Positions 4,311 to 43,916 are shown, counted from the first letter of the stretch. The stretch is 45,089 nucleotides of DNA from an uncultured Candidatus Peribacteria bacterium (GCA_964359495.1 CAYHTG010000002.1:8943-54031), one strand, 5' to 3'. Made by a program: numbers and translations. Notes: generated by a model not told the origin, from the letters alone.

Positions 4311-5480
4311 ATGAGCCTCCGTACACTTTCCACTGCAGACCTAAAAGGAAAAAAAGTCCTCGTTCGAGTGGATTTCAATGTTCCGATCTCAAATGGAATA
4401 GTTCAAGATCTAACTCGAATTGAAGAAACACTTCCAACCTTAAACTACTTAAAGGGACAGGGTGCGAAAATTATTTTAATCAGTCACTTGGGTAGACCTG
4501 ATGGGAAGCCTGTGCCTGATTTAAAAATGGATATGCTCGCTAAAACCTTAAGTACAATGATGGGGCAAGAAGTTAGAAAGTTGGACGATTGTATCGGACC
4601 TTCTGTTCGGAAAGCCATTGAAGCGATGAAACCCGGTGAGATCCTTCTTTTGGAGAATGTTCGCTTCCATCCGGAGGAGGAAAAGAATGACCCTCTTTTC
4701 GCAGCTGCTTTGGCAAAACTCGCCGAAGTTTATGTGGATGATGCATTTGGTACCGCTCACAGGGCTCATGCGAGTACCGAGGGGGTGGCTCACCTCCTCC
4801 CCTCTTACGCCGGCCTTCTTGTTGAAAAGGAGGTTCGGATTCTAAGTTCGCTCATAGAAAATGCTATGCACCCCGTCGCTTTGGTGGTGGGTGGAGCAAA
4901 AATCGATACAAAAATCGGTCTACTTGAGAAACTCCTTCCTTTGGCGGATGTTTTTATTATTGGAGGAGCCTTAGCAAATACTTTTCTTGCGGCTCAAGGT
5001 TATGCCATTGGTGCTTCTCTCTACGAACCGGAGAAAATTGGCGTTGCACTTAAGTTTCTAGAAGAGGCGCGTGGCAAAACCTTACTTCTTCCCGTAGATG
5101 CAATTACTGCATTTTCACCCGATGCCCAGCCCAAGTTAAGAGCTTTACCCGACATCAGCTCTGATGAGAATATTTTAGATATAGGGCCTCAAACGCTACA
5201 AAGCTTTCATGAGACCTTAAAGACTTGTAAAACTGTTCTGTGGAATGGGCCGATGGGACTTTACGAAAAAGATGCTTTTGCAGAAGGAACGCGGAAAATG
5301 GCACAAATTTTAGCCGAGCTCAGCGCCACTACCGTGATTGGGGGTGGTGATACAATTGACGCTCTTCATCATTTTGGAATTGACACGAAAAAGTTCAGCC
5401 ATATCTCTACAGGCGGCGGAGCGATGCTCGAGTTTCTTGAAGGGAAAACTTTACCCGGAATAGAGGTGCTTAAAGTTTAG
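4311..5480 (+). CDS. pgk: phosphoglycerate kinase
   Basis: VLVRVDFNVP, ILISHLGRP, LLENVRFHPEEEKND and STGGGAMLEFLEGK are signature PGK segments. The ORF is 389 aa. Confidence 0.95.
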   Translation: MSLRTLSTADLKGKKVLVRVDFNVPISNGIVQDLTRIEETLPTLNYLKGQGAKIILISHLGRPDGKPVPDLKMDMLAKTLSTMMGQEVRKLDDCIGPSVRKAIEAMKPGEILLLENVRFHPEEEKNDPLFAAALAKLAEVYVDDAFGTAHRAHASTEGVAHLLPSYAGLLVEKEVRILSSLIENAMHPVALVVGGAKIDTKIGLLEKLLPLADVFIIGGALANTFLAAQGYAIGASLYEPEKIGVALKFLEEARGKTLLLPVDAITAFSPDAQPKLRALPDISSDENILDIGPQTLQSFHETLKTCKTVLWNGPMGLYEKDAFAEGTRKMAQILAELSATTVIGGGDTIDALHHFGIDTKKFSHISTGGGAMLEFLEGKTLPGIEVLKV

Positions 5481-12878: not shown

Positions 12879-13121
12879 ATGGAAAAAATAATCTCTTTTC
12901 AAAGATTTATTATCGAACTGCTGGCCGTGCAGTTGCCCAAACTCAACTTGAGCGAGCTTGAGGTTTTAGGCACTCAGGTGGCGATTTACTCTTATTTTGA
13001 GAACAACAATTCGCTCGAAAAAATTTATTTTGAGATTTTGGATTATTGCGATGAGAACGAAAAATTGAGTGTTTTGCTCCCTAAAATTGAAGACTTTTAC
13101 TCTCAAACCCTCGATTCATGA
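12879..13121 (+). CDS. hypothetical small acidic protein, translationally coupled to the giant ORF
   Basis: The ORF ends in ATGA, overlapping the giant-ORF start at 13118. I chose the ATG at 12879 (MEKIISFQRF..., 80 aa). ATG 12861 and the track start 12819 remain possible. I recognise no family. Confidence 0.4.
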   Translation: MEKIISFQRFIIELLAVQLPKLNLSELEVLGTQVAIYSYFENNNSLEKIYFEILDYCDENEKLSVLLPKIEDFYSQTLDS

Positions 13122-16100
13122 GCGCCAATTCGAGTGTTTCATTGGATTACTACCACGATCTGGAAGGAGAGATCGCTCAGCTTAAAGCTTTTGCCGAGCC
13201 TTTGATGGAGGAAGTGAAAGTAACGCCCCTCATGCCGGTTATTAATCGTATCATTAACCTGAAGGATAGGCTCCTCGGCCTCAGCGAAGGAGAGCTTCAA
13301 TATGTGCAGGCCGAAGTGGCGGAGTGCAAGCGTTTGCTCGATGATATTTCCTACGAATACATCAAACAAATCATCACCAAACCCATTCCTTCGGATGTGT
13401 TTGGAGTCCTTTCCAGCGGCACAGAGTTCGAGAAAACCTTACGATCGGCAATTGGGAAAAAGATTTCTACCGGTAAGGGTGACCCTGAAGTTGCCATCAC
13501 ACCCGACCTGGTTGACGCTCTCACTCGCTACCGATTTTCGCTCGGAACTCCTCCCGTCACGCCCAAAGGGATCCAAACGGTTGAGAAAATTGTTTTTGGT
13601 GGAACTTTGCAAAATATTTATGCCTTTCGAGATCTCATCCGTTGCGATAGAGGGGTTTTTGATCGTTTCTTGGGTGCCGTCGATAGGCTCAATGAGCAAA
13701 GTACTCATTACACGACGGAAGCTGAAAAGCGAGATTTCAAAAAAAAGGCAATTGAGTTCCCCAATTTGGAAGGAGCTCGCGGTCTCACCAAAGCCATTGT
13801 GAGCGGAACGTCCGAAACCGCTCTTCGTTTGGTTAGGGAGCAGCTCTTCAGCAAACATGCGAATGGAAATTGTCCGGTACGAGTGATGGAAGAGGCGGAG
13901 CCTTTTACTCCTCATTTGATGCAAGAAATGAAAGCGGATAAACGATCCATGTTTATCGTGAAGGCAAGCTCCATTCCACATCACATTTTTACGGATGACG
14001 TTCTAAAAGAAGAATGGAAAGGACTTATCGGTCGTTTGGTTGTTATTGATGATTCCGACGCCGCAAAAAGATCGGGTACCGTTTTGGTTTACTCTCTTAT
14101 TCCGGAGGTCACCAGGTATTTGGAGCAATTCCATGTGAAAGATTCCGGAACGCCCGCCAACACGCAAATGAACCTTCGTCTGATTCTGGAGAATTTTAAA
14201 AATGGCGATATTGATCAACTCATTCAAAGTGTAAACGAAAAGGCCGCCCTCTTGGAAGCGGAAGGTGTGCATTTGCTTCCGCACGGAGAAGTTCGAAAAA
14301 AAGAATGGCAAAAAACAGGACAATTGGATTATATGAATTTGAAGAAATTCAAGCGCTTTTTGGAATTTGTGAAAAAAATGAAGTCGGGTGATTTTTCTGA
14401 AATTGGGGAAAATAATCGTCGTCTTGAGAGACGAACCGGTGAGCTCACGATGGATTATTTCTTCAAAGACTTAAAAGGTAAAGGGTATCGTGCCATTACT
14501 GTTCCTCAAGGTGGCGGTCGTCGTGAAATCGGACTTCCGGGACGCTTTCATTTGAAGGGTCACAATAAAAAAGTTGCCGACTTTAAAGGGCAAAAACTCC
14601 AGGCATGCAGAGAAAAACTCCTTGCATTAAAAAGAGATCTTGGAATACCCGAGGAGACCACGGCGGCGGAAGCGGCGGCTTTACAGCGCGCCTTGGACGC
14701 TCGAAGAAGTCCTCACCTTCCCCCTGAGGGAGAAGCCGTCAGTCGTATTGGCGCCAAAGTAAAAACCCGCGTCACGGAAGCCATTCATGAATCGGCGCTT
14801 CGATCGGACGTCGTTGTGAATGCCGTGATTGCCCGTATGGATGAGGTGCTTGGCGCCAATATTCCGGGTTTTATGAAAGGAAAAGTCACGAAACTTCTTC
14901 GAAGTGGTGGGATTGAAGCGGCGGCAAAAATGTTTGACCGTGGACAATTCAGAGCTGCGGCAAACCGTCTCAGAGCCTTGGGAGGGCGCATCAGAGTCGG
15001 GGCCGCCCATCTTGCCGAAAAAATTCAAACCCCTTTGGAAATAATTCGGTCTCGTTTGGAACCGGCTGATCTGGACTTGGTGGAACGTCTTCTGAATGAC
15101 ATTGAGAACGGGTCGTTTGAGCCGAGTCTTGCCTTGTCTGAGGTAAGCTGGACGGTGGGAGATGTTTTACGCGAAGAAGATTTCCCCAAAAAGAACTTTA
15201 TTAAAATTGAGTTGAACGGCGACGGATCGCAAAATCCCGATTCTCTTGAAAGACAATTGGAAGAAAAACGCCGAGCACTCGCCGAGTTTCCGGAACTCTT
15301 TGAGCTGTATTGCTCCAGTATATTGATTTACTTCAATGATCCGCACAATCCGACCTCTCAAGTGGCCAGCCCCCAAGTAAAGCTGAAACTGTTGGATCTT
15401 GCCTCCCGATACAACTTGGCTATTTTGGCCGATGAACCTTATCACAAACAAGTTTCCAAGAAAGTAAAAGACCGACAAGGCGATCCTTCTTTTGCCGAGT
15501 TTTACGAACGATACCGACCTCGTTTCCCCAATCCGGTTCGCATCTACGGCTCCATCTCAACGACGAAGTGGGCCATGGGAGCCGGGCGGCGCACGGGAGT
15601 GCTTCTGACGAATGACAACTCCGTGATGGAAGACGGAAAGAATTTTGAAGATTTTGTGGCCGAGAATATTGATGGCTGCAATGCCATGTCTCTGTACATG
15701 GACCAAGAAACTTTACTCATCGGTCTCCTGGTAAAAAGAGTTTGCAAACCCATTGAGGCTTACATTGATGTGACGAATCCTTACAATATCCTCAGTAATG
15801 CTCTTAATCCTTACGGTAATACTTGTGAGTTGCTTGATCAAATTCTCCATGAGAATTTTTCCGATCTAAACGCGGAAGATTTTAACGCTGCCATGTATTC
15901 ACTTCTTCTTGACTCTCGAAACAAGCTCGATCGACTTCAAGCACGTGGCGCTGAGCCTATGGATTACTATCAATTTTTGAGCGATCTTGTTTCAAAACTT
16001 AAAGAATTCCGGCTCGATAAACAAACTCAAAAAGACTCCGCGCAAAGGAGCCAGGCCGCATGGGAAGCCGTGAAGCGTTTGTCCGCAGAATTTCCAGGCC

Positions 16101-19100
16101 TTGAAGAACGGTGCATCGAGCCACAAGGTCCTTTTTATTTCTTGGTGGGTCTTGATCAAACGACCAATGATCCCGCGCTGCGGCCTTTTCTTTTGGCTCT
16201 GGCACGTGCTCGAAAAATTGAAGTTGTTCCACAGGCCAAAGGGTATGCTCGTTTTGCTTTCGGAGGTTTGGTGGATGGAACCGAGGAAGGATACAAGGAT
16301 TTTAGTTTGGGTATTGAAACGGATCTTCGTTTGCTTCTCAAATATTGGGATGAGTTCCAAGCCATTCGTGCTCGCTTGAACAAAGAAAAAGACCTGGATC
16401 CCATTAACAATGCGCTCAAGGAACTCTTCCCCGGCGGTGAAATTGATTTGGCGCGAACGATACAAGATAAAAGTGTGCTTCTTGAGCGTTTGCGCTCGAA
16501 CCCACGCACCGGAAAAGACAGACTCACCAATCGTTTTTCTCCGGCTGGTTCACAATACATGTCCAGCATTGAACCAGGCTCTCCGACCACCATTGTCACC
16601 ATTCGTGACGTCCAATGTCGAACGGCGGAAGATTTTATAAACAGCGAAGCTTTCCGTGATTTGTTCAATATTTTCTTGCTTCAAGTGAAAGGTCAAATTT
16701 CGGGCTTGGAGCAAATGGAAGACAGTGCCATTATCGCTCAATATGGCGCCGATGAATTTGCGAAACGCTTCGAATCCCGCAACTTCCAAAATGTTCGCCG
16801 TGATATTTTTGAAGAAATCGCCATTCGCGTCGCGAATTTGTGGTTTAACCCGAGTATGATCAAGATTTTGGGACTCAAAATTCCCGACGGTCTTTCAGCC
16901 TCGGACCAAGGAGATCTTTTGAGAGGAGCAGAAGTGAGAATTTCAGACTTTATCCAGACGATTATTCAAGCTTTTGTTAGTCCGGAGAAGGAGGCTCAAG
17001 TTCTCCAAGAAAGAATTGAAATGATCATTAAGGGCTTAAATCAAAAACTTCCTCAAGAAGATAGAGAAAAACTTCTGGTATACACTCGTGATTACGAATT
17101 GTTTTCAGCTTTTTTGAACAGTCTCGACGAAGATTTGGTTCCTCTGCATACGAAAGAAAGATTATTGGCTCTGACTCGAAAAGTCAGTTACCCTGCAAGT
17201 TTTCAAGCCGCTTATCCCACGGTTCGCGGCATCAAGGCCGATTCCGGTTTACAAGCATGGGCTCAAAAATTTATAGGCCGTGCGGAATTCGCCGGACAAA
17301 GCGTGGCTACCGATAGGTCCCCCGCCATGGTTACTCCCGGCACGGCTCGAGTGGCCGGTTATGAGCGAGGTATTTATCGCCGCGACGGAGACGGTAGTTC
17401 CGCTCCCGGGAAAGATTTTTTTAGAAAACGCTTGGGTGAATTTGCCGAAGTTATGAATCCCAAAGACTACGTGTGCAAAATGGTTCAAGTGGGTCCTACG
17501 CGACTCATGCTCGTAATGCACCGATCCTACAGCCACTACATGGTTCATGAACTTCAACTTTTCCCTCAATTCGATGTCTCTTTGGCCGAAATGCAAAATT
17601 TGAAGCCGGACGCCATCTGTTTTATGGGTATTCCCACTAAAACGATCGGGGAAGATTACAGAATCGGTAACTTTTTGGATGAAGATTCCGATGGAACTTC
17701 CATTCCGGTTTCCTGGGTTGATGCTGAGGACATTACCGATTACATGGGCTATTTTAAAAAACCCGTACTGACGGTGGCCAATGAACGGGTAAAAGCCGTC
17801 GGCGGAATGCCCGTTCATGGTTCAGCGCTCACCATTACGGCAAAGAACGGACTTCGTAAAACAGTGGTTATGGGAGGTGACAGCGGAACGGGTAAGTCGG
17901 AAACCATCATCGCGATGACCAATCAAATTATTGAGGGCCTTGGCGGTGCAGAAAATATTGAATCGGTGGAATTGCTCTCGGGAGACATGTTGTCTCTTTT
18001 CGAAGGTGAAGATGGGGAAATGTACATGATGGGAACCGAATCGGGAGATTTTATGCGTTTAACCGATATTCCCAAGGAGTGGCAGGAAAGGATGAGAGAC
18101 TGGATCAGTAGTTCAAGTAAAACCAACCTTGACGACAAAACCAATCCGAGAGCGACCATTAACGGTATCTGCGATCCCAATGTTTTTTTGAGTCCGGTTC
18201 GAGTGAATATCTTCGCCAATATCAATAATTTTGAAAAACCCGAAGGCGCGGCTTTTCAAGAGGACCGAGACCCTGCGAACTTGCTGCTCGATACTTATGT
18301 AAAAGGCTATCGCTGTGAAAAAGGTACCAGTGGAGATCAGCCCAATCTTTTTGCCAGCATCGAGCAGAGTAAAGTGCCTGACCGTGAGACATTGCTCACC
18401 AAATATAAGGAGGATTTGGATCGGCTTCTGGGTTGGAACCTTATTCTGGCAAAGACTGGAAAAGTAAAAACATCCATTCTTTCTTTCAAAGACGTTCCCG
18501 GTGAAGTGTTTAAGGCCAGTCAAATGGTGAAGGATCTTTTTGTCGGGAAGCATTGTGACTATAAAGACAAAGAGAAAAAGGAAGAAAAAAACTATACGAT
18601 TTTAGACGCTCGGTATGCAGTGCGCGAAAATCGTTTTTATGTCACGGTCAAAGATGAAGATACGGGTGCGACGGAGGAAAAACCTTTGGATCGAAACATT
18701 TTCGATGGAGTTTACAATCCCATTGCCAGCACCTATTGCGGAAATCCATTTGTTGATCCGCGCGGTATGGATTCCGTCTTGCGAAGATTTGCAGGGGTAA
18801 TGAAGAAAGCAGGCGTCATTACGGGTAACTTGTACACGGAGTTAGGTGTTGAAGGGGAAGAGCGCAGCGGTCCCGCACGAGCCGCTCAAGCGTTGATTGA
18901 GTTTATTGAAGAAGATCCTCGCATCAATGAACGTTTCCAGCGCAATAAAGATCGTGTTTCACGGGCGCTCACCACAAAATACGGAGCCGCCATTTTGGGG
19001 CAAGGCAGTATTCCTCAAGAAGTGGAGGCTCATAATCTTTATCTTCTGGAAAGACAGGAAAGCGATGCCGTTCATTTGGTGGACAGCGCGAGAAAAACCG

Positions 19101-19444
19101 TTCCCATTCGAACGCCTCACTACGAAAATGTCTCTGGAAGGTCTAAAAAAGAATTTGCGCCTTCTCTTGTTCGCCCGGAAATCGCAAAAATCATCAATGC
19201 GGTTTGTGAGGGTCCCGACGGCAAGGCTATCAATCTGGAGCATTTCGACCCTCCTCTAGAACGTTATGATTCCATTCAAACTTGGGACAACAAAGCCGAG
19301 CTCATTTATCAAATTTTGCTCATCAATGGTGTAATGCGGCTCGGGTACATCGAAGGCATTGTTCATCACCAAATCGCTGAAGTCAAAAAAGCTGAAAAGA
19401 TCGCTGAGGAATTAATGCGAAGTAGAAGTGTAAGTGCGGCCTAA
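13118..19444 (+). CDS. giant 2108-aa multidomain protein: central split aminotransferase class I/II-like fold plus an HprK/PEPCK-like P-loop kinase domain; the rest is unassigned
   Basis: A single uninterrupted ORF. Aminotransferase-like motifs: ITVPQGGGRRE (aa 460), FNDPHNPTSQV (aa 740), LADEPYHKQV (aa 772), SISTTKWAMGAGRRTGVLL (Lys817) and PQGPFYFLVG (aa 1002). Kinase-like motifs: VHGSALTI...VVMGGDSGTGKSETIIAM (aa 1566-1600). Confidence 0.85.
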   Translation: MSANSSVSLDYYHDLEGEIAQLKAFAEPLMEEVKVTPLMPVINRIINLKDRLLGLSEGELQYVQAEVAECKRLLDDISYEYIKQIITKPIPSDVFGVLSSGTEFEKTLRSAIGKKISTGKGDPEVAITPDLVDALTRYRFSLGTPPVTPKGIQTVEKIVFGGTLQNIYAFRDLIRCDRGVFDRFLGAVDRLNEQSTHYTTEAEKRDFKKKAIEFPNLEGARGLTKAIVSGTSETALRLVREQLFSKHANGNCPVRVMEEAEPFTPHLMQEMKADKRSMFIVKASSIPHHIFTDDVLKEEWKGLIGRLVVIDDSDAAKRSGTVLVYSLIPEVTRYLEQFHVKDSGTPANTQMNLRLILENFKNGDIDQLIQSVNEKAALLEAEGVHLLPHGEVRKKEWQKTGQLDYMNLKKFKRFLEFVKKMKSGDFSEIGENNRRLERRTGELTMDYFFKDLKGKGYRAITVPQGGGRREIGLPGRFHLKGHNKKVADFKGQKLQACREKLLALKRDLGIPEETTAAEAAALQRALDARRSPHLPPEGEAVSRIGAKVKTRVTEAIHESALRSDVVVNAVIARMDEVLGANIPGFMKGKVTKLLRSGGIEAAAKMFDRGQFRAAANRLRALGGRIRVGAAHLAEKIQTPLEIIRSRLEPADLDLVERLLNDIENGSFEPSLALSEVSWTVGDVLREEDFPKKNFIKIELNGDGSQNPDSLERQLEEKRRALAEFPELFELYCSSILIYFNDPHNPTSQVASPQVKLKLLDLASRYNLAILADEPYHKQVSKKVKDRQGDPSFAEFYERYRPRFPNPVRIYGSISTTKWAMGAGRRTGVLLTNDNSVMEDGKNFEDFVAENIDGCNAMSLYMDQETLLIGLLVKRVCKPIEAYIDVTNPYNILSNALNPYGNTCELLDQILHENFSDLNAEDFNAAMYSLLLDSRNKLDRLQARGAEPMDYYQFLSDLVSKLKEFRLDKQTQKDSAQRSQAAWEAVKRLSAEFPGLEERCIEPQGPFYFLVGLDQTTNDPALRPFLLALARARKIEVVPQAKGYARFAFGGLVDGTEEGYKDFSLGIETDLRLLLKYWDEFQAIRARLNKEKDLDPINNALKELFPGGEIDLARTIQDKSVLLERLRSNPRTGKDRLTNRFSPAGSQYMSSIEPGSPTTIVTIRDVQCRTAEDFINSEAFRDLFNIFLLQVKGQISGLEQMEDSAIIAQYGADEFAKRFESRNFQNVRRDIFEEIAIRVANLWFNPSMIKILGLKIPDGLSASDQGDLLRGAEVRISDFIQTIIQAFVSPEKEAQVLQERIEMIIKGLNQKLPQEDREKLLVYTRDYELFSAFLNSLDEDLVPLHTKERLLALTRKVSYPASFQAAYPTVRGIKADSGLQAWAQKFIGRAEFAGQSVATDRSPAMVTPGTARVAGYERGIYRRDGDGSSAPGKDFFRKRLGEFAEVMNPKDYVCKMVQVGPTRLMLVMHRSYSHYMVHELQLFPQFDVSLAEMQNLKPDAICFMGIPTKTIGEDYRIGNFLDEDSDGTSIPVSWVDAEDITDYMGYFKKPVLTVANERVKAVGGMPVHGSALTITAKNGLRKTVVMGGDSGTGKSETIIAMTNQIIEGLGGAENIESVELLSGDMLSLFEGEDGEMYMMGTESGDFMRLTDIPKEWQERMRDWISSSSKTNLDDKTNPRATINGICDPNVFLSPVRVNIFANINNFEKPEGAAFQEDRDPANLLLDTYVKGYRCEKGTSGDQPNLFASIEQSKVPDRETLLTKYKEDLDRLLGWNLILAKTGKVKTSILSFKDVPGEVFKASQMVKDLFVGKHCDYKDKEKKEEKNYTILDARYAVRENRFYVTVKDEDTGATEEKPLDRNIFDGVYNPIASTYCGNPFVDPRGMDSVLRRFAGVMKKAGVITGNLYTELGVEGEERSGPARAAQALIEFIEEDPRINERFQRNKDRVSRALTTKYGAAILGQGSIPQEVEAHNLYLLERQESDAVHLVDSARKTVPIRTPHYENVSGRSKKEFAPSLVRPEIAKIINAVCEGPDGKAINLEHFDPPLERYDSIQTWDNKAELIYQILLINGVMRLGYIEGIVHHQIAEVKKAEKIAEELMRSRSVSAA

Positions 19445-21454: not shown

Positions 21455-21925
21455 CTAAAGTGTGCAGGGTTTAGTATCAAATAAATTTTGAACCACTTTG
21501 GTATGATTACGAACTTTTTTTGCGAGATCCTTGTCGGTCAAAGCTAAAATGCGAGCCACCGCTTGACCGGCATTTTTCGGATCCACTACTGTAAGAGCCG
21601 GAGTTTCACTGGGCATTTGCAAGGAGGAATGAATGTTGGCCAAGTAATCGGCGTAGTCTTTAAAGGGGGGACAAGCCAAAACCGGAAAATGCGTATTGGC
21701 GGAAACCAATCCACTGAGGGCGTTGGATCGACCGGCTATGGTCACAAAAACCACACTTTCTTTTTTTTCATTAAAATGTTTAATGATTTCCAGCGTTTTT
21801 TCAGGAACTTTGTGCGCGGAGGAAATATAAATTTCATGTTTCACACCGTAATCGTCCAAAATTTTGGCGATTTCCTTAGCGTGATCGAGGTCGGATTTTG
21901 AGCCGAGTATAAAAGGGACAATCAT
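21455..21925 (-). CDS. purE: 5-(carboxyamino)imidazole ribonucleotide mutase / AIR carboxylase catalytic subunit
   Basis: ILGSKSDLDHAKEIAKILDDYGV...ISSAHKVPEKT and IAGRSNALSGLVSA are PurE motifs. The ORF is 156 aa. Confidence 0.9.
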   Translation of the reverse strand: MIVPFILGSKSDLDHAKEIAKILDDYGVKHEIYISSAHKVPEKTLEIIKHFNEKKESVVFVTIAGRSNALSGLVSANTHFPVLACPPFKDYADYLANIHSSLQMPSETPALTVVDPKNAGQAVARILALTDKDLAKKVRNHTKVVQNLFDTKPCTL

Positions 21926-22890
21926 AGGAAATAAGGTTTAAGATTAGTTTCAATGCGAGAAAGAACGTCGCCGGGCTCGGCCGTGAAGCTTTGTCCCGTG
22001 ATCATTTCATAAGCTTGAATGTATTTCTCGGCAGTTTCACAAATAACCTCCTGTGGAATTTCCGGGATTTCCCCTTCCCCGGTATAGCCTTTGTTGGCGA
22101 GCCAGAGTCGCAAAAATTCTTTATTGATGTTATCGGGTTCTTGGCTGGTGGCCATTTTTTCTTCGTAAGTCGCGGCAATCCAGAACCGTGAAGAGTCGGG
22201 CGTGTGGATTTCATCGATCACCACAATGTCCCCTTCCGGGGTGAAGCCGAATTCGTATTTGGTGTCCACCAGAATCACTCCTTGGCGAGCGGCCACTTCC
22301 ACTCCTCTGGCGTAGAGCATCAGCGCATAATTGGAGAGTTTTTCCCATTGCTCGGCGGTGAGCAAGCCTTGCTTCAGAATCTCTTCGGGCGTGAGGTTGG
22401 CATCGTGATCGCCGTGTGCCGCTTTGCTGGTTGGGGTGATGATAGGAGCGCGCAAGCGCTCGTTCTTCTTGAGCCCCTCCTGTAAAATATTACCTCCGAT
22501 ATTCCTTCCCCCGTTCGCATAAATCGTCCACGCAGAAGTTGAGGTGGAGCCGGTGATGTAACCGCGCACAATCATCTCCACCATGATGGGTTTGCACTCC
22601 TTCCCCACAATCACTTGCGGATCGGGATAGGATTCGATGTAATTCGGGCAAATGTCCTTCGTATTTTCAAACCAAAACTTCGTGAGCGCGTTGAGCACTT
22701 GACCCTTGAACGGAATGAGCGCGATGACTCGGTCGAAGGCGGAAAGGCGGTCACTGGTTATGAGGATGCGGCGCTTGCCTTGAGTGTAGTTGTCACGAAC
22801 CTTCCCCTCGTAATAGCTTCCGAGATTTGTAAAACTCGTGCCTTTCAAAACATGAGGGATTTGAGAGGCAATGACGTCGCGAGGGATCAT
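21922..22890 (-). CDS. purC: SAICAR synthetase (long form)
   Basis: YEGKVRDNY, LITSDRLSAFD, ILVDTKYEFG and EIHTPDSSRFW are PurC motifs. It overlaps purE by 4 nt. Confidence 0.9.
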   Translation of the reverse strand: MIPRDVIASQIPHVLKGTSFTNLGSYYEGKVRDNYTQGKRRILITSDRLSAFDRVIALIPFKGQVLNALTKFWFENTKDICPNYIESYPDPQVIVGKECKPIMVEMIVRGYITGSTSTSAWTIYANGGRNIGGNILQEGLKKNERLRAPIITPTSKAAHGDHDANLTPEEILKQGLLTAEQWEKLSNYALMLYARGVEVAARQGVILVDTKYEFGFTPEGDIVVIDEIHTPDSSRFWIAATYEEKMATSQEPDNINKEFLRLWLANKGYTGEGEIPEIPQEVICETAEKYIQAYEMITGQSFTAEPGDVLSRIETNLKPYFL

Positions 22891-23034: not shown

Positions 23035-24201
23035 ATGAAAAGAGCCTTCAAAGTTAACCGTTTTCCATTTGCTTGTCACCCCAAGCTGCTTTTCGACCTT
23101 GCAAATAAAGAATATCTAACGAGATTCCCTATTCAATCTCTGCCATTTTCACACTGCATCGTATATGTAGTCGTGAGCGAAGACAAAAAGATTTCGTTAA
23201 AATTTTGTTTTCCCCAGGATGTCGATTTAATTTTGAGTTTCATACATAAGAGACCTGGCGGAGCGCATGCAGGTGAAGATACCTTAAACACAGACATTCG
23301 AGAGGTTACAGATATCCACATTCCAAATTTTGAGGAAAAATATTTTTTTGACTTTGCTTTTTTCATTTTTGATTTTAACACTGGAAAATATTGGTCTACG
23401 TTATTTTTAACCCAAGAGATATGTCCGGACTTAAGATTTTACTTGTCAAAAAAAAGAAAGGATCGGTATAAAAAAATTGGCAAGGATTTGGCAAAAAAAT
23501 ATAATACCACCCTTATCTTAGGACACACGAATCTTGCCTCTGGCAAACTACGCAGATCGAACGGCATCTCCAAATTGATTAGTAGTGGTTGGATCCCCAC
23601 AATCTCTCTTTTCCCACAACCCTACGGTGAGATGATAAATGTGATTGAAAAAGAAAACGATTTAGAGAAAGTGAACACGTTGATTTGTAAGGTTTTCCGA
23701 GAGAATCAATTTTTAGAAAAAATCTTAGAAAGATGGCTGGCCTCTAGTTTAACGAAAAAGAGAATCAGAGCTCTTCTGGCTATCGTTGATGATTTTAAAA
23801 GAGAAGACTATCTCTCCTGTATTTATGTCCTTTTACCTCAGGTAGAGGGGTTAATTACTGATCATATTAAAAGAAGGGGTCAAATACCTGGTGCAAAAAT
23901 CGAAGACCGGTTTAAGCAATTTGGCGATATCATTAATTCTGAAACTTATAACACGAAAATGACAAAATATTTAACTATGATTTTCATTCGTAGTCTTAAA
24001 AAGACTTTCTATAAAACTTGGTACCCTTACATCTATAGAGGAAAGGCATACCGTGGAGCTCACATAGTACCACAGAGGCACTTACTGCTTCATGGTGAAT
24101 TTAAACTGGGTTACTTTACAGAAGCAAATTGTATAAAACTCATGTGTATTCTTGATAATATTATTTTGTTGTCTCTCAGGGACAGAGAACTGACTCGCTA
24201 A
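23035..24201 (+). CDS. hypothetical protein with a C-terminal HEPN-like domain (putative Abi-type RNase)
   Basis: 388 aa and AT-rich. The C-terminal helical region contains PQRHLLLHGE, that is R348-x4-H353, which matches the HEPN Rx4-6H motif. It is preceded by ALLAIVDDFKREDYLSCIYVLLPQVEGLI. I do not recognise the N-terminal ~230 aa. Confidence 0.55.
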   Translation: MKRAFKVNRFPFACHPKLLFDLANKEYLTRFPIQSLPFSHCIVYVVVSEDKKISLKFCFPQDVDLILSFIHKRPGGAHAGEDTLNTDIREVTDIHIPNFEEKYFFDFAFFIFDFNTGKYWSTLFLTQEICPDLRFYLSKKRKDRYKKIGKDLAKKYNTTLILGHTNLASGKLRRSNGISKLISSGWIPTISLFPQPYGEMINVIEKENDLEKVNTLICKVFRENQFLEKILERWLASSLTKKRIRALLAIVDDFKREDYLSCIYVLLPQVEGLITDHIKRRGQIPGAKIEDRFKQFGDIINSETYNTKMTKYLTMIFIRSLKKTFYKTWYPYIYRGKAYRGAHIVPQRHLLLHGEFKLGYFTEANCIKLMCILDNIILLSLRDRELTR

Positions 24202-24292
24202 AACTTTCCAGCAAACCTCCACTTTTTCTTGGCCCACTCCCCTGCGTAGTCGACTCCGAGGCGGTGGCTTTGATCTTGCCTACTTTGTCGCC
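24198..24292 (-). pseudogene. decayed remnant of the mpg 3' end (about the last 26 codons, frameshifted)
   Basis: The reverse strand reads ...GDKVGKIKA[frameshift][19 protein letters not shown]. The intact mpg reads [31 protein letters not shown]. There is no start codon, and there are 4 fewer nt than the intact copy in my hand alignment. Confidence 0.7.
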
Positions 24293-24801
24293 TAACGAAA
24301 TAGTTCCAGGTTGGCTTCCAAAAAGTAGTAGTACTGGGTGCATTTGTGTCCTCGGCCCTTTTTGTATTCAAGTGATTTTACTTCGGTTTCTTTGAAAAAA
24401 GGTCTTGGATAGTCGTTGAAATCTGCAGTGAGAAGTAAGGGGGCTGAATCCGTGAAAACCAGTGAACCGATAAATACATCCATGTCGGAAATGGAGTTCA
24501 AAACAGATTTGATGCTGCCTTCCTTCAAGTAGGCGGAATAGAGCAAAGTAGCTCTTTCCAGGCGATCAGCACTTTGTGGGATTTTTTCGTAGTGATCTAA
24601 TTCTTCTAGAACCTTCGCTTTATTTTCTGTGCTTGCGCTTCTCAAAAGCTCGTAATAGCTGAATTCGCTCACATAAAGCTTGTTGTCGTTTTGAATGAGT
24701 TCCTCGATCAAATCAACCGTAGCTTTTAGAAGGCCCTTTTCTTTGCTGAGTGAGTATTGGATGACACAGCTGTCTAACAATATGGCTTTTCCTTTGATCA
24801 T
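24292..24801 (-). CDS. PIN-domain toxin (VapC-like)
   Basis: 169 aa with acidic PIN positions in the expected order: AILLDSCVI (D), VSEFSYYEL (E), SDMDVFIGS (D) and LTADFNDY (D). Confidence 0.75.
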   Translation of the reverse strand: MIKGKAILLDSCVIQYSLSKEKGLLKATVDLIEELIQNDNKLYVSEFSYYELLRSASTENKAKVLEELDHYEKIPQSADRLERATLLYSAYLKEGSIKSVLNSISDMDVFIGSLVFTDSAPLLLTADFNDYPRPFFKETEVKSLEYKKGRGHKCTQYYYFLEANLELFR

Positions 24802-24806
24802 CGTCC

Positions 24807-24962
24807 CTATCTCGTTAAGGCTTCTCTATCTTCGTGATTTTCCGTTTCAAATAGCCCAACTCTTGAAGTTTTTCGTAAAGCTTTAAGTAAGGCCTCTCTA
24901 TCCTTTTTGGACTGTTCAGGCCATTTGTCATTCAGTAATCGTTGGCGTTCTTTTACAGACAT
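24807..24962 (-). CDS. putative small antitoxin partner of the PIN toxin
   Basis: A 51-aa ORF (MSVKERQRLLNDKWPEQSKKDREALLKAL...) ending 6 nt upstream of the PIN start, in the typical antitoxin-first arrangement. I recognise no family. The track start at 25031 is less likely. Confidence 0.4.
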   Translation of the reverse strand: MSVKERQRLLNDKWPEQSKKDREALLKALRKTSRVGLFETENHEDREALTR

Positions 24963-25062
24963 AAATTTTAGCGTTAACTGACGGTGAAATAGTACTCCGA
25001 TGAAGTAGTGCAAGCAACTTTTGGTGCTCAAAAATGTGTTGTCAGAGCAGTGACAACAGGCA

Positions 25063-25245
25063 CTAGTCTATCATAAATCTCCACTTCTTCTTCGCCCACT
25101 CCCCCGCATAGTCCACTCCAATCCTCGGAGTTGTTTTAATCTTCCCTACTGTGTCCCCTCGGTCTTCGAACCAGAGGCCGGAATCTTCAGTAGCGGAGAG
25201 GGTGTTTAGGGTGAGGTCGATCTTCACTTCTATATTTGCCAGCGA
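25063..25245 (-). pseudogene. remnant of the mpg 3' end (last ~57 codons, in frame, no start codon)
   Basis: The reverse strand reads [60 protein letters not shown]. By my hand count, 41 of 55 aligned residues are identical to the intact mpg C-terminus. It shares an exact 20-mer, TCTTCGAACCAGAGGCCGGA (25163-25182 versus 26073-26092). Confidence 0.8.
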
Positions 25246-25261
25246 TTACTTCTTTGTAAAA

Positions 25262-25561
25262 CTATACTGCAAACTCAAAAATCTTAATTTTCTTCGAAAT
25301 GGTTTTTTCGAAAATCTCTTCTTCAATTTCTAAATCATAGTAAGACTGCAAATTTACCCAAAACTCTGCAGATGTATTAAAAAATTTCCCCAGCCTTAAA
25401 GCAGTATCTACGCTAATAGATCTTTTACCGTGAATTATTTCACTGATACGAATTGCAGATACATCAATATCTTTAGCAAGTTTATACTGACTGATTCCTA
25501 GAGGTACAAGGAATTCTTCTGCAAGTATTTCACCGGGATGTATAGGCTTTAATGTTTTCAT
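25262..25561 (-). CDS. higA: HigA-family antitoxin (XRE-type HTH)
   Basis: KPIHPGEILAEEFLVPLGISQYKLAKDIDVSAIRISEIIHGKRSISVDTALRLGKFF is the canonical HigA/VapI HTH sequence. Confidence 0.9.
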   Translation of the reverse strand: MKTLKPIHPGEILAEEFLVPLGISQYKLAKDIDVSAIRISEIIHGKRSISVDTALRLGKFFNTSAEFWVNLQSYYDLEIEEEIFEKTISKKIKIFEFAV

Positions 25562-25610
25562 ACTTACTAACTTACTAGGGTTACGTTTTTTTGTTATTTA
25601 TTTTTAAGTA

Positions 25611-25889
25611 TCAATGGTAGTCAATAATTTCTACGTCGTAAGCATCTCCATCGTTCCATCTAAAGCATATTCTCCACTGATCGTTGATTCTGATACTGTG
25701 TTCTCCATCTCTGTCTTTACGTAATTTTTCTAGATGATTTCCGGGCGGTACCTTTAGATCGTTCAGCTCCTTTGCTGCATGTAACATCCTGAGTTTCCTT
25801 AGAGCTAGCTTTTGAATGTTGGCGAACCGTTTGGAGCCTTCTCGGGTGTGTATTTTCTCCGTTTCCTTGCAGTTGAAGCTCTTGATCAT
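25611..25889 (-). CDS. higB: HigB-family (RelE-fold) toxin, plasmid-maintenance killer type
   Basis: MIKSF...L..LHAAKELNDLKVPPGNHLEKLRKDRDGEHSIRINDQWRICFRWNDGDAYDVEIIDYH is the classic HigB pattern. The toxin lies upstream of the antitoxin, as in higBA. Confidence 0.9.
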   Translation of the reverse strand: MIKSFNCKETEKIHTREGSKRFANIQKLALRKLRMLHAAKELNDLKVPPGNHLEKLRKDRDGEHSIRINDQWRICFRWNDGDAYDVEIIDYH

Positions 25890-25921
25890 TTCGGAGGAGA
25901 GGTAGGTTCATATCTGACCTA

Positions 25922-25950
25922 ATAGTACACCGTGACTTTAGTGTCGTCAA
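25922..25950 (-). promoter_or_regulatory. candidate promoter for higBA
   Basis: On the minus strand: TTGACG (rc of 25945-25950), a 17-nt spacer, then TACTAT (rc of 25922-25927). It lies about 35 nt upstream of the higB ATG. Confidence 0.3.
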
Positions 25951-25972
25951 GCGATAGTATTGTCAAACGTTA

Positions 25973-26482
25973 CTATATGGTCACAAACCTCCATTTCTTC
26001 TTGCTCCACTCCCCCGCGTAATCCACTCCAATCCGAGGAGTGGCTTTGATTTTCCCTACTTTCTCGCCGCGATCTTCGAACCAGAGGCCGGAGGATTCGG
26101 CGGCGGGGAGAGTGTTCAAGGAGCCATCAATCTTCAGAGCTTTCGTGAGGCGGGCGGGGCCATTACCTCCTTCTACGCCGCGGATGAGGATGGCGGCGGG
26201 GTAATCTTTGGGGCCTGTGACGATGTTGAGCATCCAGTGGAGGCCGTAGCAGAGGTAGACGTAGAAGTGGCCGGGTTCACCGAACATGACTTCGGTGCGA
26301 GGAGTGCGGCCTTTGGAGGCGTGGGAGGCTTTGTCATCGGGGCCGTCGTAGGCTTCCACTTCCGTGATGCGGAGGGCGGTTTCGGTTCCGTCGGAGAAGC
26401 GGCGTACGAGGAATTTGCCGAGGAGGTCACGGGCGACTTCCAAGGTGGGGCGGTTGAAAAAAGAGGGTGGGAGGATTTTCAT
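25973..26482 (-). CDS. mpg: DNA-3-methyladenine glycosylase (Mpg/AAG family)
   Basis: MKILPPSFFNRPTLEVARDLLGKFLV..., ITEVEAYDGPDDKASHA, GHFYVYLCYGLHWMLNIV and AAILIRG are Mpg family motifs. I chose the ATG at 26482. The 96-nt upstream extension in the track has no homology-like content. Confidence 0.9.
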   Translation of the reverse strand: MKILPPSFFNRPTLEVARDLLGKFLVRRFSDGTETALRITEVEAYDGPDDKASHASKGRTPRTEVMFGEPGHFYVYLCYGLHWMLNIVTGPKDYPAAILIRGVEGGNGPARLTKALKIDGSLNTLPAAESSGLWFEDRGEKVGKIKATPRIGVDYAGEWSKKKWRFVTI

Positions 26483-26565
26483 GTTTGTAATATTACAGGG
26501 TTTTGTGATATTCTTTAAATAGTCGGGTGCTGTAATAAAGTTACAGTTTCTCTCGGATGACGCAG

Positions 26566-26598: not shown

Positions 26599-26713
26599 AA
26601 AAAATGCCTGGTGTTGGTGGTGTCATTATATCATTTGCACTAATAGATCAAAAACATGTTGTCGAAGCTCCAACAACAACCCCTGGATTTAAGTTTTTCG
26701 GCTTCGCTAAGTA

Positions 26714-27265
26714 TTAAACAGCATAAGGAAAATTTTCGATGAGGGTATAAACGGGACCCTCTGGAGTGAGGTCGGACTCGTAAAGATGGCACTCTTTGAT
26801 TTGGAGAGGTGACATTTTGTAGGCTTTGAAGGCAAACCTACGTGAATCAATAGGAGTTTTTAATCGAGCTAAAGTGAGGTGAGGAATGCTCTCCTTCTCA
26901 TCTTCGTCTTCCTGTATGTAAGGGGAAAGAAATTTGCGAAGTTCCGCGTTGAGTTCCGTGAAGGAATAGTTCTTATAAAAACGAGCCCAGACCATTTTAG
27001 GCAACTTACCCGGAAAAAGAAAAATGCCTTCAAATTGGAGCTCAAAGGGTGGGATGTGTGCAAAAAATCCGCGTAAAATTTGTCGCATTTCAGGAATCAT
27101 CATTCCTTGGACCTCCCCTAAAAACAAAGTTGTGATATGAAGATTTTGAAGTTGAGCCCACTTCGCATCTTTGAAATTAGGATCCGAGCGATAAGGTGTG
27201 AGGTAGGAGTCTAATCGTTCAATTTCTTCCGCCGGTAAGGGCAAAGCCAGGAAAAGTCGTTTCAT
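26714..27265 (-). CDS. thpR: RNA 2',3'-cyclic phosphodiesterase / 2'-5' RNA ligase (2H phosphoesterase)
   Basis: Two HxT motifs are present: NLHITTLFLG and IPHLTLARL. The ORF is 183 aa. Confidence 0.85.
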   Translation of the reverse strand: MKRLFLALPLPAEEIERLDSYLTPYRSDPNFKDAKWAQLQNLHITTLFLGEVQGMMIPEMRQILRGFFAHIPPFELQFEGIFLFPGKLPKMVWARFYKNYSFTELNAELRKFLSPYIQEDEDEKESIPHLTLARLKTPIDSRRFAFKAYKMSPLQIKECHLYESDLTPEGPVYTLIENFPYAV

Positions 27266-42923: not shown

Positions 42924-43916
42924 ATGAAGAAAATCCGAAAACTTAAGTTTATTGATTTGTTTGCAGGCATCGGTGGCTTTCACCTGGCATTTCACAACGC
43001 AGGTGCAGAATGTGTTTTTTCATCTGAGTGGGATGATGCTGCAAGGAAAACTTACGAACACAATTTTAAAAAGATATCCCCCGAGATATTTGAAAATGGT
43101 AACTTTATCGGAGATATTAATTCTATCAAGGATATTGAAAGCGAAATGCCTGACTTTGATATTTTGACAGGCGGCTTCCCTTGTCAGCCATTTAGTAATG
43201 CGGGGCATAAATTGGGATTTGAAGATACAAGGGGTACTTTATTCTTTAATATTGCAGAAATTTTAAGGGTTAAACAGCCAAAGGCTTTTTTCCTGGAAAA
43301 CGTAAACGGATTACTAAACCATAACAACGGTGAAACTTTTGCCAAAATAAGAAAAGTTCTAGAGGAGGATCTTGGATACTCTTTTAATTTTTTTAGAGTG
43401 AAAGCCTGTGATTACGGATTGCCGCAACTAAGGCCAAGGGTTTTCATGATCGGATTCAAAGATAAAAGTATTAAATTTGATGCGCCTGCAAAGAAACCTT
43501 TGCAACTCACGATGTCTGAAGTCTTCGGTGGGGTGTGCCCAAGAAAAATAGGGTTCACGCTTAGGTGTGGCGGTAGAAGATCACCAATAGATGATAGGAG
43601 GAATTGGGACGGCTATATTGTGGATGGTGAGGTTAAGCGTGTAACTTCTAAAGAAGGGAAGAAAATGCAGGGATTTCCCGATAGTTTTGAGTTCCCTGTA
43701 AATGAAACCTACGCAATGAAGCAGTTGGGCAATAGCGTTGCAGTTCCGGCAATTCAGGCTTTTGCTGAAGTAATTGTACGAACTCTTACGAGCGTACATG
43801 AAGAGCACCTTTTGGAAACTTCGCCTCGTCGGATCTATATTCCACCCATGGTGCCAGCATTGGGTACTTTGCAGATGAATACAAATCCACAAGTTGACCT
43901 GCAACCTTCTTTGTAG
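42924..43916 (+). CDS. dcm: DNA (cytosine-5)-methyltransferase
   Basis: Motif I FIDLFAGIGGF, motif IV GGFPCQPFSNAG, motif VI FFLENV, motif VIII QLRPRVFMIG and motif X QLGNSVAVP. The target recognition domain is short, so specificity cannot be read off. Confidence 0.9.
   Translation: MKKIRKLKFIDLFAGIGGFHLAFHNAGAECVFSSEWDDAARKTYEHNFKKISPEIFENGNFIGDINSIKDIESEMPDFDILTGGFPCQPFSNAGHKLGFEDTRGTLFFNIAEILRVKQPKAFFLENVNGLLNHNNGETFAKIRKVLEEDLGYSFNFFRVKACDYGLPQLRPRVFMIGFKDKSIKFDAPAKKPLQLTMSEVFGGVCPRKIGFTLRCGGRRSPIDDRRNWDGYIVDGEVKRVTSKEGKKMQGFPDSFEFPVNETYAMKQLGNSVAVPAIQAFAEVIVRTLTSVHEEHLLETSPRRIYIPPMVPALGTLQMNTNPQVDLQPSL

Follow-up and report, generated by a model that had tools for sequence, protein, structure and literature searches.

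Stacked toxin-antitoxin cassettes behind mpg in a groundwater Candidatus Peribacteria genome: a probable record of repeated replacement of one gene's 3' end

We analyzed the interval between ligT and purC in a 45,089-nucleotide (nt) stretch of DNA from a groundwater Candidatus Peribacteria genome (GCA_964359495.1). All coordinates refer to this whole stretch, which we call the window. In the interval, an intact mpg gene is followed by two toxin-antitoxin (TA) gene pairs, and each pair is followed in turn by a further, diverged copy of the mpg 3' end. Judging from the sequences of the window and of related loci, this architecture was probably built by successive insertions, each of which replaced the 3' end of mpg. 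A fuller reading, in which the interval is a hotspot that gains blocks of mpg tail and cargo through a position-specific recombinase acting in trans, is plausible, and we put it forward tentatively.

Intervals of relatives were recovered by using purC as an anchor. Related loci, which carry L numbers below, were read as contig flanks of at most 10 kb, and most of them are low-coverage metagenome contigs. The purine genes that flank the interval in the window share 80-97% protein identity with contigs labelled Candidatus Peribacteria and with other groundwater contigs. On the minus strand, the order of features is ligT, a palindrome, mpg, higB, higA, copy B of the mpg tail, a second palindrome, a 51-amino-acid (aa) open reading frame (ORF), a PIN ORF, copy C of the mpg tail, the 3' end of a convergent gene, and purC. 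In the following list, C3 is the fraction of C at third codon positions.

26714-27265, minus strand: ligT-like 2'-5' RNA ligase gene (Pfam PF02834, E 2e-16), the conserved left flank of the hotspot
26657-26678, minus strand: terminator-like palindrome TGTTGTTGGAGCTTCGACAACA plus a T-run, after ligT, of the same family as the hairpin after copy B
25973-26482, minus strand: intact mpg (PF02245, E 4e-54; TIGR00567 above its cutoff, 176 bits)
26066-26482, minus strand: mpg body, codons 1-139 (C3 0.65; maximum-likelihood compositional changepoint at codon 139, coordinate 26065)
25973-26065, minus strand: tail A, the current mpg 3' end (C3 0.16; set off by the changepoint; contiguous with the block in L089)
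25257-25975, minus strand: higBA cassette, with higB at 25889-25611 and higA at 25561-25262 (Pfam and NCBIfam matches, promoter scan)
25063-25226, minus strand: copy B, a relic of mpg codons 116-169, in frame and with its own TAG stop
25037-25058, minus strand: terminator-like palindrome TGTTGTCACTGCTCTGACAACA followed by CATTTTT, where the PIN cassette has its left end
24292-25059, minus strand: PIN cassette, consisting of a leader, the putative 51-aa antitoxin (24962-24807) and the putative PIN toxin (24801-24292)
24198-24292, minus strand: copy C, a frameshifted relic of mpg from codon 139 to the end (homology at 24292-24212)
23035-24201, plus strand: convergent 388-aa gene with no family assigned (Rx4H motif QRHLLLHG, seen by eye)
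21922-22890, minus strand: purC, the conserved right flank of the hotspot

The initial annotation, made from the window alone, had placed three copies of the mpg 3' end at these positions, and a repeat search, tblastn and a hidden Markov model (HMM) of the mpg tail all agree on them. The repeat search aligned A (25956-26136) with B (25046-25226) over 181 nt at 75% identity and an offset of 910, and it reported three-copy families at 24212-24257 and 24264-24292. With intact Mpg as the tblastn query, E was 1e-22 for copy B (41/52 residues) and 2.7e-5 for copy C. Copy B also matched PF02245 on its own (E 9e-7), and the tail HMM recognized all three copies at E 1e-16 to 1e-19. The 20-mer TCTTCGAACCAGAGGCCGGA, which had been reported as identical at 25163 and 26073, is exact at both positions, a match that occurred in 0/100 shuffles. 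Two details of the earlier description of copy B need correction. It had been described as having 57 codons and no start codon, but its homologous part comprises 54 codons, and an in-frame GTG is present, giving an ORF at 25063-25227. In copy C, the 81 nt at 24292-24212 (codons 139-166) correspond to 26068-25984 of A with a 4-nt deletion. Copy C then continues into a tail of its own, WRFAGKF*, which ends at 24198, and its stop codon (24198-24200) overlaps that of the convergent gene.

The polarity of the repeats is consistent. All of the relics that we saw (8/8) are 3'-terminal, and no mpg 5' fragment is present among the relics found across related loci. The target gene, moreover, is reconstituted: mpg is intact, and copies A, B and C are direct repeats of its 3' end.

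The three copies are mutually 80-84% identical and are about as close to the tails of other genomes. Differences between A and B are distributed over codon positions 1/2/3 as 10/4/20, with P 0.002 for the excess at position 3, and those between B and the tail of L147 as 9/1/14. Because these differences follow a coding-like codon-position pattern, we take the tails to have diverged within working genes and to be different alleles, not decayed duplicates. The same conclusion, that the copies came from different mpg alleles and not from a recent local duplication, had been drawn in the initial annotation, and both the between-genome level of identity and the coding pattern favor it. It is thus very improbable that mpg, or its end, was duplicated locally in tandem and then decayed, with TA genes inserted independently between the copies. 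Within the window, tails resemble one another slightly more (80-84%) than an average between-genome pair does, as such a duplication might leave them, but their divergence is coding-like and not that of neutral decay, the same blocks of tail and cargo are found in other genomes, and copy B is a chimera of body-like and tail-like parts. Furthermore, no genome with several full-length mpg copies was found among 157 loci.

Misjoining of the mpg ends of co-existing strains during assembly has a negligible probability. The sequence does come from a metagenome, and coverage is low (2-3 in related contigs), but an assembler would not be misled by copies as diverged as these (75-85% identity). L081, L082 and L152, from separate Hainich H52 assemblies of different replicates, have the identical array (L152 is 99.7% identical over 2284 nt), so that 4/4 assemblies of the source population contain it completely. 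Because three further independent assemblies carry the same array, it is not an assembly artefact.

Comparison with relatives establishes that the ligT-purC interval is a hypervariable hotspot flanked by core genes, with ligT in syntenic position in L003, L084, L089, L096, L107, L147 and L153. The mpg locus had been proposed to be an integration hotspot, and both empty sites and different cassettes are indeed found among the relatives compared. Representative contents are as follows.

L107: ligT and purC 67 nt apart (empty)
L098: acyP abutting purC (empty)
L084: ogt, PD-(D/E)XK, major facilitator superfamily (MFS) gene, tRNA-Asp, DUF2283, DUF1905, mpg and a convergent DUF6602 nuclease gene
L153: mpg, a methyltransferase gene (faint N6_N4_Mtase match) and a 288-aa ORF, the latter two a putative restriction-modification pair
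L095: mpg, RhuM and higBA
L147 and L148: RelB, two genes without an assigned function, the PIN pair, and DUF2971 (L147) or HEPN-like DUF4145 (L148)

It follows from these contents that mpg itself lies inside a variable island of defence and addiction genes. The gene is damaged or absent in several relatives: L003 has an internal deletion, and L089, L147, L148, L092 and L086/L096 retain remnants only. In this clade, mpg appears to be dispensable, and it is often lost while a tail relic persists.

The first of the two cargo units is a type II TA pair of the HigB/HigA kind, with a RelE-fold toxin gene first and a helix-turn-helix antitoxin gene after it. HigB matches PF05015 at E 3e-17 (63 bits; cutoff, 27), and HigA scores 110 bits with TIGR02607 (cutoff, 47.7). 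A promoter scan found a promoter-like site, TTGACG-17-TACTAT, before higB at 25950-25922. The second unit is less clearly classified. Its putative toxin matches a PIN domain only weakly in Pfam (E 5e-4; 21.2 bits, below the gathering score of 23.6) and the NCBIfam VapC model at E 2e-4 (21.7 bits, below the cutoff of 80), and some members of its family carry PF01850. The 51-aa ORF matches no family, and it is conserved together with the putative PIN toxin in L085, L086, L147 and L148.

Both units recur in other genomes together with an mpg end, as would be expected if, as the initial annotation suggested, cargo travels with a substitute mpg end. A block of tail and higBA is shared with L089 and L095, one of tail and PIN pair with L147, and L095 has the order mpg, rhuM, tail. 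In L089, where only the tail of mpg is present, positions 4445-5246 are contiguous with window 26089-25260 (tail A, promoter, higB and higA) at 73% identity over 834 nt. Window 25182-24293, which includes tail B, the palindrome, the antitoxin and the PIN toxin, aligns to L147 9641-10509 at 86.5%. In L095, an intact mpg is followed after 12 nt by rhuM, then by a tail relic and higBA, and the rhuM unit is ~1 kb long. Pairs of relatives also reveal where sequences were exchanged. Starting inside the tail, after GGATTATGC, L089 and L095 match at ~99-100% over the next 1.6 kb rightward, and leftward they are unrelated; L083 and L003 are 97% identical from a tRNA through mpg to GGACTCTGGTTTGAAGATAGAG and diverge from codon 139 on.

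The PIN cassette is ~750-770 nt long (768 nt in the window; 751-753 nt aligned among L147, L148 and L149). It is 90-98% identical among the window and these three loci, with 90% identity between the window and L148/L149. Because the purC-purB region is only ~75% identical in the same comparison, these values indicate recent horizontal movement of the cassette. Its ends are the same in four contexts: on the left, the palindrome TGTTGTCA-N-TGACAACA, and on the right, exactly the stop codon of the PIN ORF. After this stop codon, each of the four continues differently, with copy C, with a gene for a membrane protein, with a higA-like gene or with other DNA. The left cassette joint of L148 falls within the loop of a palindrome; in L147, the same palindrome is uninterrupted and carries no cassette. 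The PIN pair also occurs upstream of an intact mpg (L085) and of a longer, decayed mpg remnant (L086/L096).

A higBA cassette outside the hotspot was also found. In L150/L151 (GCA_964365765.1, Hainich H32), another genome, higBA resides upstream of rnpA-yidC (L150 2600-3450), with no mpg tail beside it. The HigB protein of these loci belongs to the same 90% protein cluster as that of the window, and blastn aligned window 25891-25257 at 81% nucleotide identity, ending 5 nt past higA. By eye, a conserved higBA leader extends the similarity to TAGTAACG, which is where mpg has its stop codon in the window.

Base composition points to the same joints. In the intact mpg genes of this clade, C3 drops from 0.62-0.70 in the body to 0.03-0.25 in the last 30-55 codons; it is 0.19-0.36 in other genes of the window. 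Maximum-likelihood changepoints fall at codon 139 in the window (at 26065) and in L084, at codon 114 in L083 and L153, and at codon ~128 in L095. The relics start at codon 139 (copy C), 140 (L095), 116 (copy B), ~118 (L089) and ~128 (L147), and the changepoints of intact genes match these starts. Copy B has a mixed composition, its first 23 codons being C3-rich and body-like and the remainder tail-like, as would result from a cut at codon 116 in a gene already joined at codon 139. At nucleotide resolution, the relic in L095 starts at AAAAGTAGG, the equivalent of 26066-26063, and copy C starts at the equivalent of 26068, so that the two are 2-5 nt apart. Taken together, the joints cluster at codons ~115, ~128 and ~139, where they coincide with the compositional changepoints.

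We propose the following scheme. Each addition would be a block consisting of a substitute mpg tail and its cargo. The substitute tail would be fused to the resident body by recombination in the final ~55 codons of mpg, so that the gene stays intact, and the previous tail would be displaced downstream, to survive as a relic. For the window, the native gene would have consisted of the body and tail C, convergent with the 388-aa gene. Copy C is read as the native end because it abuts the convergent gene as intact mpg does in L084, a cassette-free syntenic locus in which mpg ends 8 nt from the convergent gene. A block of tail B, terminator, antitoxin and PIN toxin would then have been joined at codon 139, and a block of codons 116-169 (including tail A) and higBA would later have been joined at codon 116, displacing copy B. 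Subsequent homologous exchange between relics and at the terminator palindromes could have shuffled or deleted cassettes, and the TA pairs presumably persist because their loss is harmful (addiction), as known TA behavior suggests.

The joining step would be carried out by a position-specific recombinase acting in trans and encoded by the host or by a helper element. We infer such an enzyme because independent genomes have their joints at the same 2-3 positions, with no recombinase in cis. The initial annotation had remarked on the lack of a recombinase in the window, and this is borne out: no recombinase or transposase domain was matched by Pfam in window ORFs of at least 120 aa. No recombinase was found in the ~8 related islands whose genes were inspected, and integrase-bearing versions of the locus, which relatives might have carried, were absent from the islands inspected.

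Several observations weigh against this scheme. The left ends of relics do not lie at a single position but at codons 116, ~118, ~128, 139, 140, 142 and 75, and the end in L148 is a 36-nt secondary deletion of the L147 version, with the same left flank. The cargo side of the joints has no shared half-site, and neither a target-site duplication nor convincing terminal inverted repeats were found at cassette ends. The crossover between L089 and L095, at the equivalent of ~26018, is not at the start of a relic. Each of the two TA cassettes is also found, with fixed ends, where no mpg tail adjoins it (L148, L149, L085 and, upstream of rnpA, L150), and tails that stand beside the same cargo are not each other's closest relatives. 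By the tail HMM, arrays with more than one tail are limited to two species-level cases among the 157 loci, namely the source population and L095. Finally, no recombinase was identified anywhere within the flanks of at most 10 kb. The initial proposal, that elements carrying a replacement 3' end had inserted one after another, holds for the architecture; its further component, a site-specific integrating element, is less secure, given the multiple relic ends, the lack of a half-site and the tail-less cassettes.

The same architecture could have arisen without a site-specific enzyme, through homologous crossover in mpg or in upstream core genes coupled to an illegitimate far-end join inside the resident mpg. 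In this homology-facilitated route, the DNA would come from related strains, and later RecA-dependent exchange between tails and terminator palindromes would move the cassettes. We regard this route as possible, if somewhat doubtful. It accommodates the variable left ends of relics and the lack of a recombinase, and the breakpoints between L089 and L095 and between L083 and L003 fall inside or on the border of the best-conserved nucleotide blocks, where homologous crossovers would be expected. GGC microhomology at the joint between the PIN ORF and copy C, as compared with L147, is also in keeping with it, as is the L148 cassette joint in the loop of a palindrome that is intact in L147. In addition, core-gene hotspots without mobile-element genes have been described (PMC10250203). 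Random joins should scatter, however, and the independent joints of the PIN and rhuM cargo lie within 2-5 nt of each other and on changepoints. Moreover, the ends of the PIN cassette are identical, and located at the stop codon, in four contexts, and tails of ~80% identity whose perfect matches do not exceed 20 nt are poor substrates for RecA. On balance, a recombinase acting in trans is slightly favored over homology-anchored illegitimate recombination.

A third possibility is that the TA pairs are the eroded stumps of larger, integrase-bearing islands at the mpg 3' end that were reduced by deletion in a streamlined genome. Tandem islands that target gene 3' ends are classical, as exemplified by SGI1 at trmE (PMC8409611, PMC2297512), and a model in which TA genes are acquired on mobile elements whose linked loci are then streamlined has been proposed (PMC13617665). 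Deletions are evident in the L148 tail, in higB of L095 and in mpg of L003. Nonetheless, this explanation is improbable: none of ~15 island variants has an integrase remnant, the rhuM unit of L095 measures only ~1 kb, beginning 12 nt past the mpg stop, and the ~750-nt PIN cassette has the same two ends and 90-98% identity in four contexts, which identifies the small cassette as the mobile unit and not as a stump that was trimmed separately in each case.

We also considered a stronger form of the trans-acting scheme, in which the mpg tail would be the docking site of a cassette platform of the Peribacteria lineage, with the recombinase encoded elsewhere and self-promoted defence and addiction cassettes of 0.75-1 kb, each bringing a substitute tail, inserted at 2-3 fixed nucleotides of the mpg 3' end. 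This is speculative, and we think it unlikely. If true, the system would resemble an integron with a gene's coding end in place of attI/attC, and it would explain the body/tail chimerism of every mpg in the clade.

In outline, the locus may be a miniature, integrase-less version of known gene accretion targeted to gene 3' ends. SGI1 at trmE is an island that targets a gene 3' end and undergoes tandem accretion (PMC8409611, PMC2297512). As with such islands, integrative mobilizable elements (IMEs) and cis-mobilizable elements (CIMEs), whose target may be a tRNA gene or a protein gene, the target here remains intact through an incoming substitute 3' end, and displaced ends form direct-repeat relics with the oldest outermost. 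By contrast, the variants seen here have no integrase in cis, the units are single operons of 0.75-1 kb, the joints lie at 2-3 positions instead of one, and cargo cassettes are also found detached from a tail. Integrase-less elements that depend on a helper exist, including CIMEs and mobilizable genomic islands (MGIs).

Similarities to other cassette systems are partial. The dif (pdif) modules of Acinetobacter, moved by host XerC/D (PMC6449649, PMC13141974), are likewise small, lack a recombinase of their own and in many cases carry TA genes; they have short palindromic bounds, and their order is shuffled between replicons, as module order is shuffled here. Unlike those modules, the present locus is chromosomal, lies in a bacterium of the candidate phyla radiation (CPR), and has no 11-6-11 sites. 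Its palindrome has a 5- to 8-nt loop, marks only the left end of the PIN cassette, and is terminator-like. Xer-dependent dif modules were rejected as an explanation because there is only this single palindrome with a variable loop, and no 28-bp XerC-6-XerD sites on both sides. Integron arrays and clusters of attC sites lacking integron integrases (CALINs) share with the locus single-function cassettes of ~0.5-1 kb, often TA genes, that are separated by relics of a repeated recombination site. Unlike them, the locus has neither IntI nor attC (GTTRRRY), its repeat is the coding end of a gene, and its cassettes carry their own promoters. An integron cassette array or CALIN was rejected on these grounds, which include the promoter-like site in higBA, and because antisense RNA folds of the tails do not exceed shuffled sequences in stability. 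Finally, core-gene-flanked hotspots (PMC10250203) and TA "spots" with high turnover (PMC13617665) resemble the locus in having a fixed interval with varying cargo and, in many cases, no mobile genes. They differ from the ordered scars of one gene's repeatedly replaced 3' end that are found here.

Neither mpg as an integration target nor an array of this kind in Peribacteria was reported in the literature searched. The genomes of CPR bacteria are tiny and contain few recognizable mobile elements, and how defence and addiction genes are gained and exchanged in these bacteria is poorly understood. The locus offers a layer-like, ordered record of repeated gene gain at one site, with the same modules in different orders among related groundwater populations. 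If a dedicated enzyme makes the joints, the locus would represent compact cassette capture with a new target, mpg, and with no recombinase in cis. If no dedicated enzyme is involved, it would clearly illustrate how, in nature, an island is built by homology-anchored illegitimate recombination. In both cases, the locus provides precise junction sequences.

Further searches and candidate features are summarized here. No second mpg tail was found in the 80 GTDB representative genomes with the most similar mpg, scans of viral contigs with the tail peptide, full Mpg and the PIN protein revealed no relatives, and Rfam gave nothing near threshold. The 20-nt block that is identical in A and B was evaluated as a possible att core. 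This block codes for the conserved motif SGLWFED, and its nucleotide sequence is also conserved in cassette-free relatives, so that it is not diagnostic. We also rejected the idea that retention of the mpg tail reflects a role of its antisense strand in terminating the convergent gene, because the antisense folds are no more stable than those of shuffled sequences (z -1.0 to +1.2).

The convergent 388-aa gene has no match in Pfam, NCBIfam or PADLOC and is alone in its 90%-identity protein cluster. Its position is held in relatives by DUF6602 (L084) or by HEPN-like DUF4145 (L148). The "HEPN-like" label that it had been given lacks family support, the Rx4H motif noted above being the only feature in its favor.

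The palindromes belong to a lineage-wide family, TGTTGT(C/T)-N8-(G/A)ACAACA, usually followed by CATTTTT. Sites are located at 26657-26678 and 25037-25058 in the window, at 5220-5241 and 12247-12268 in L003, and at 1812-1833 in L083, with further sites in L084 (8905-8926), L092 (202-222) and L148 (602-622). Copies of the palindrome follow ligT and copy B, precede tRNA-Asp genes by ~80-100 nt, and mark the left end of the PIN cassette. Judging by these placements, the palindrome may serve as a common terminator and, in addition, as a joint for recombination.

Genes resembling tRNA-Asp are located upstream of mpg in L003 (5332-5409), in L083 (1353-1430 and 1924-2001, in tandem) and in L084 (9007-9084). 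ARAGORN assigned some of them an abnormal anticodon loop (tRNA-???). The window itself has no tRNA close to mpg. In this island, the tRNA may be a second target of integration.

The PIN toxin family is very small, with 15 proteins at E<=1e-5 in a search of 5.8 billion proteins that had limited sensitivity. The five closest members that could be placed (at least 64% identity) reside in the same ligT-purC island, and a 54%-identical member is on two contigs that lie outside it. In L095, rhuM and higB share a nearly identical leader of 15-16 nt, CCCAAAAA(A)CCTATGA (386-400 and 1545-1560), which hints that cargo genes there were swapped precisely at a shared translation-start context.

In composition, the mpg body is an extreme outlier, with C3 0.62-0.70, G3 ~0.1 and GC 0.61 in genomes of ~45% GC. 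This bias is seen at 26066-26482 in the window and in L083, L084, L085, L003, L095 and L153. It persists across proteins that are 72-87% identical, and thus does not simply reflect recent transfer from a GC-rich donor. One by-product is the presence of long open antisense frames, such as 26237-26518 on the plus strand. The damaged mpg of L003 (5544-5969; 141 aa) lacks codons ~93-130, beside the codon-139 breakpoint, and is probably a pseudogene. Many short matches to the tail were found in a library of 1.84 billion proteins, in which fragments at contig edges are indistinguishable from relics. Among them are tail-only ORFs (P0294, P0284, P0305, P0308, P0335 and P0268) from other, partly GC-rich lineages, with Met just before GLWxEDRG; on this basis, mpg tail relics may exist outside Peribacteria.

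Elsewhere in the window, positions 13118-19444 contain an ORF of 2108 aa. A gene at 42924-43916 encodes a C-5 cytosine DNA methyltransferase (PF00145, E 7e-78), and the ORFs adjacent to it are unannotated.

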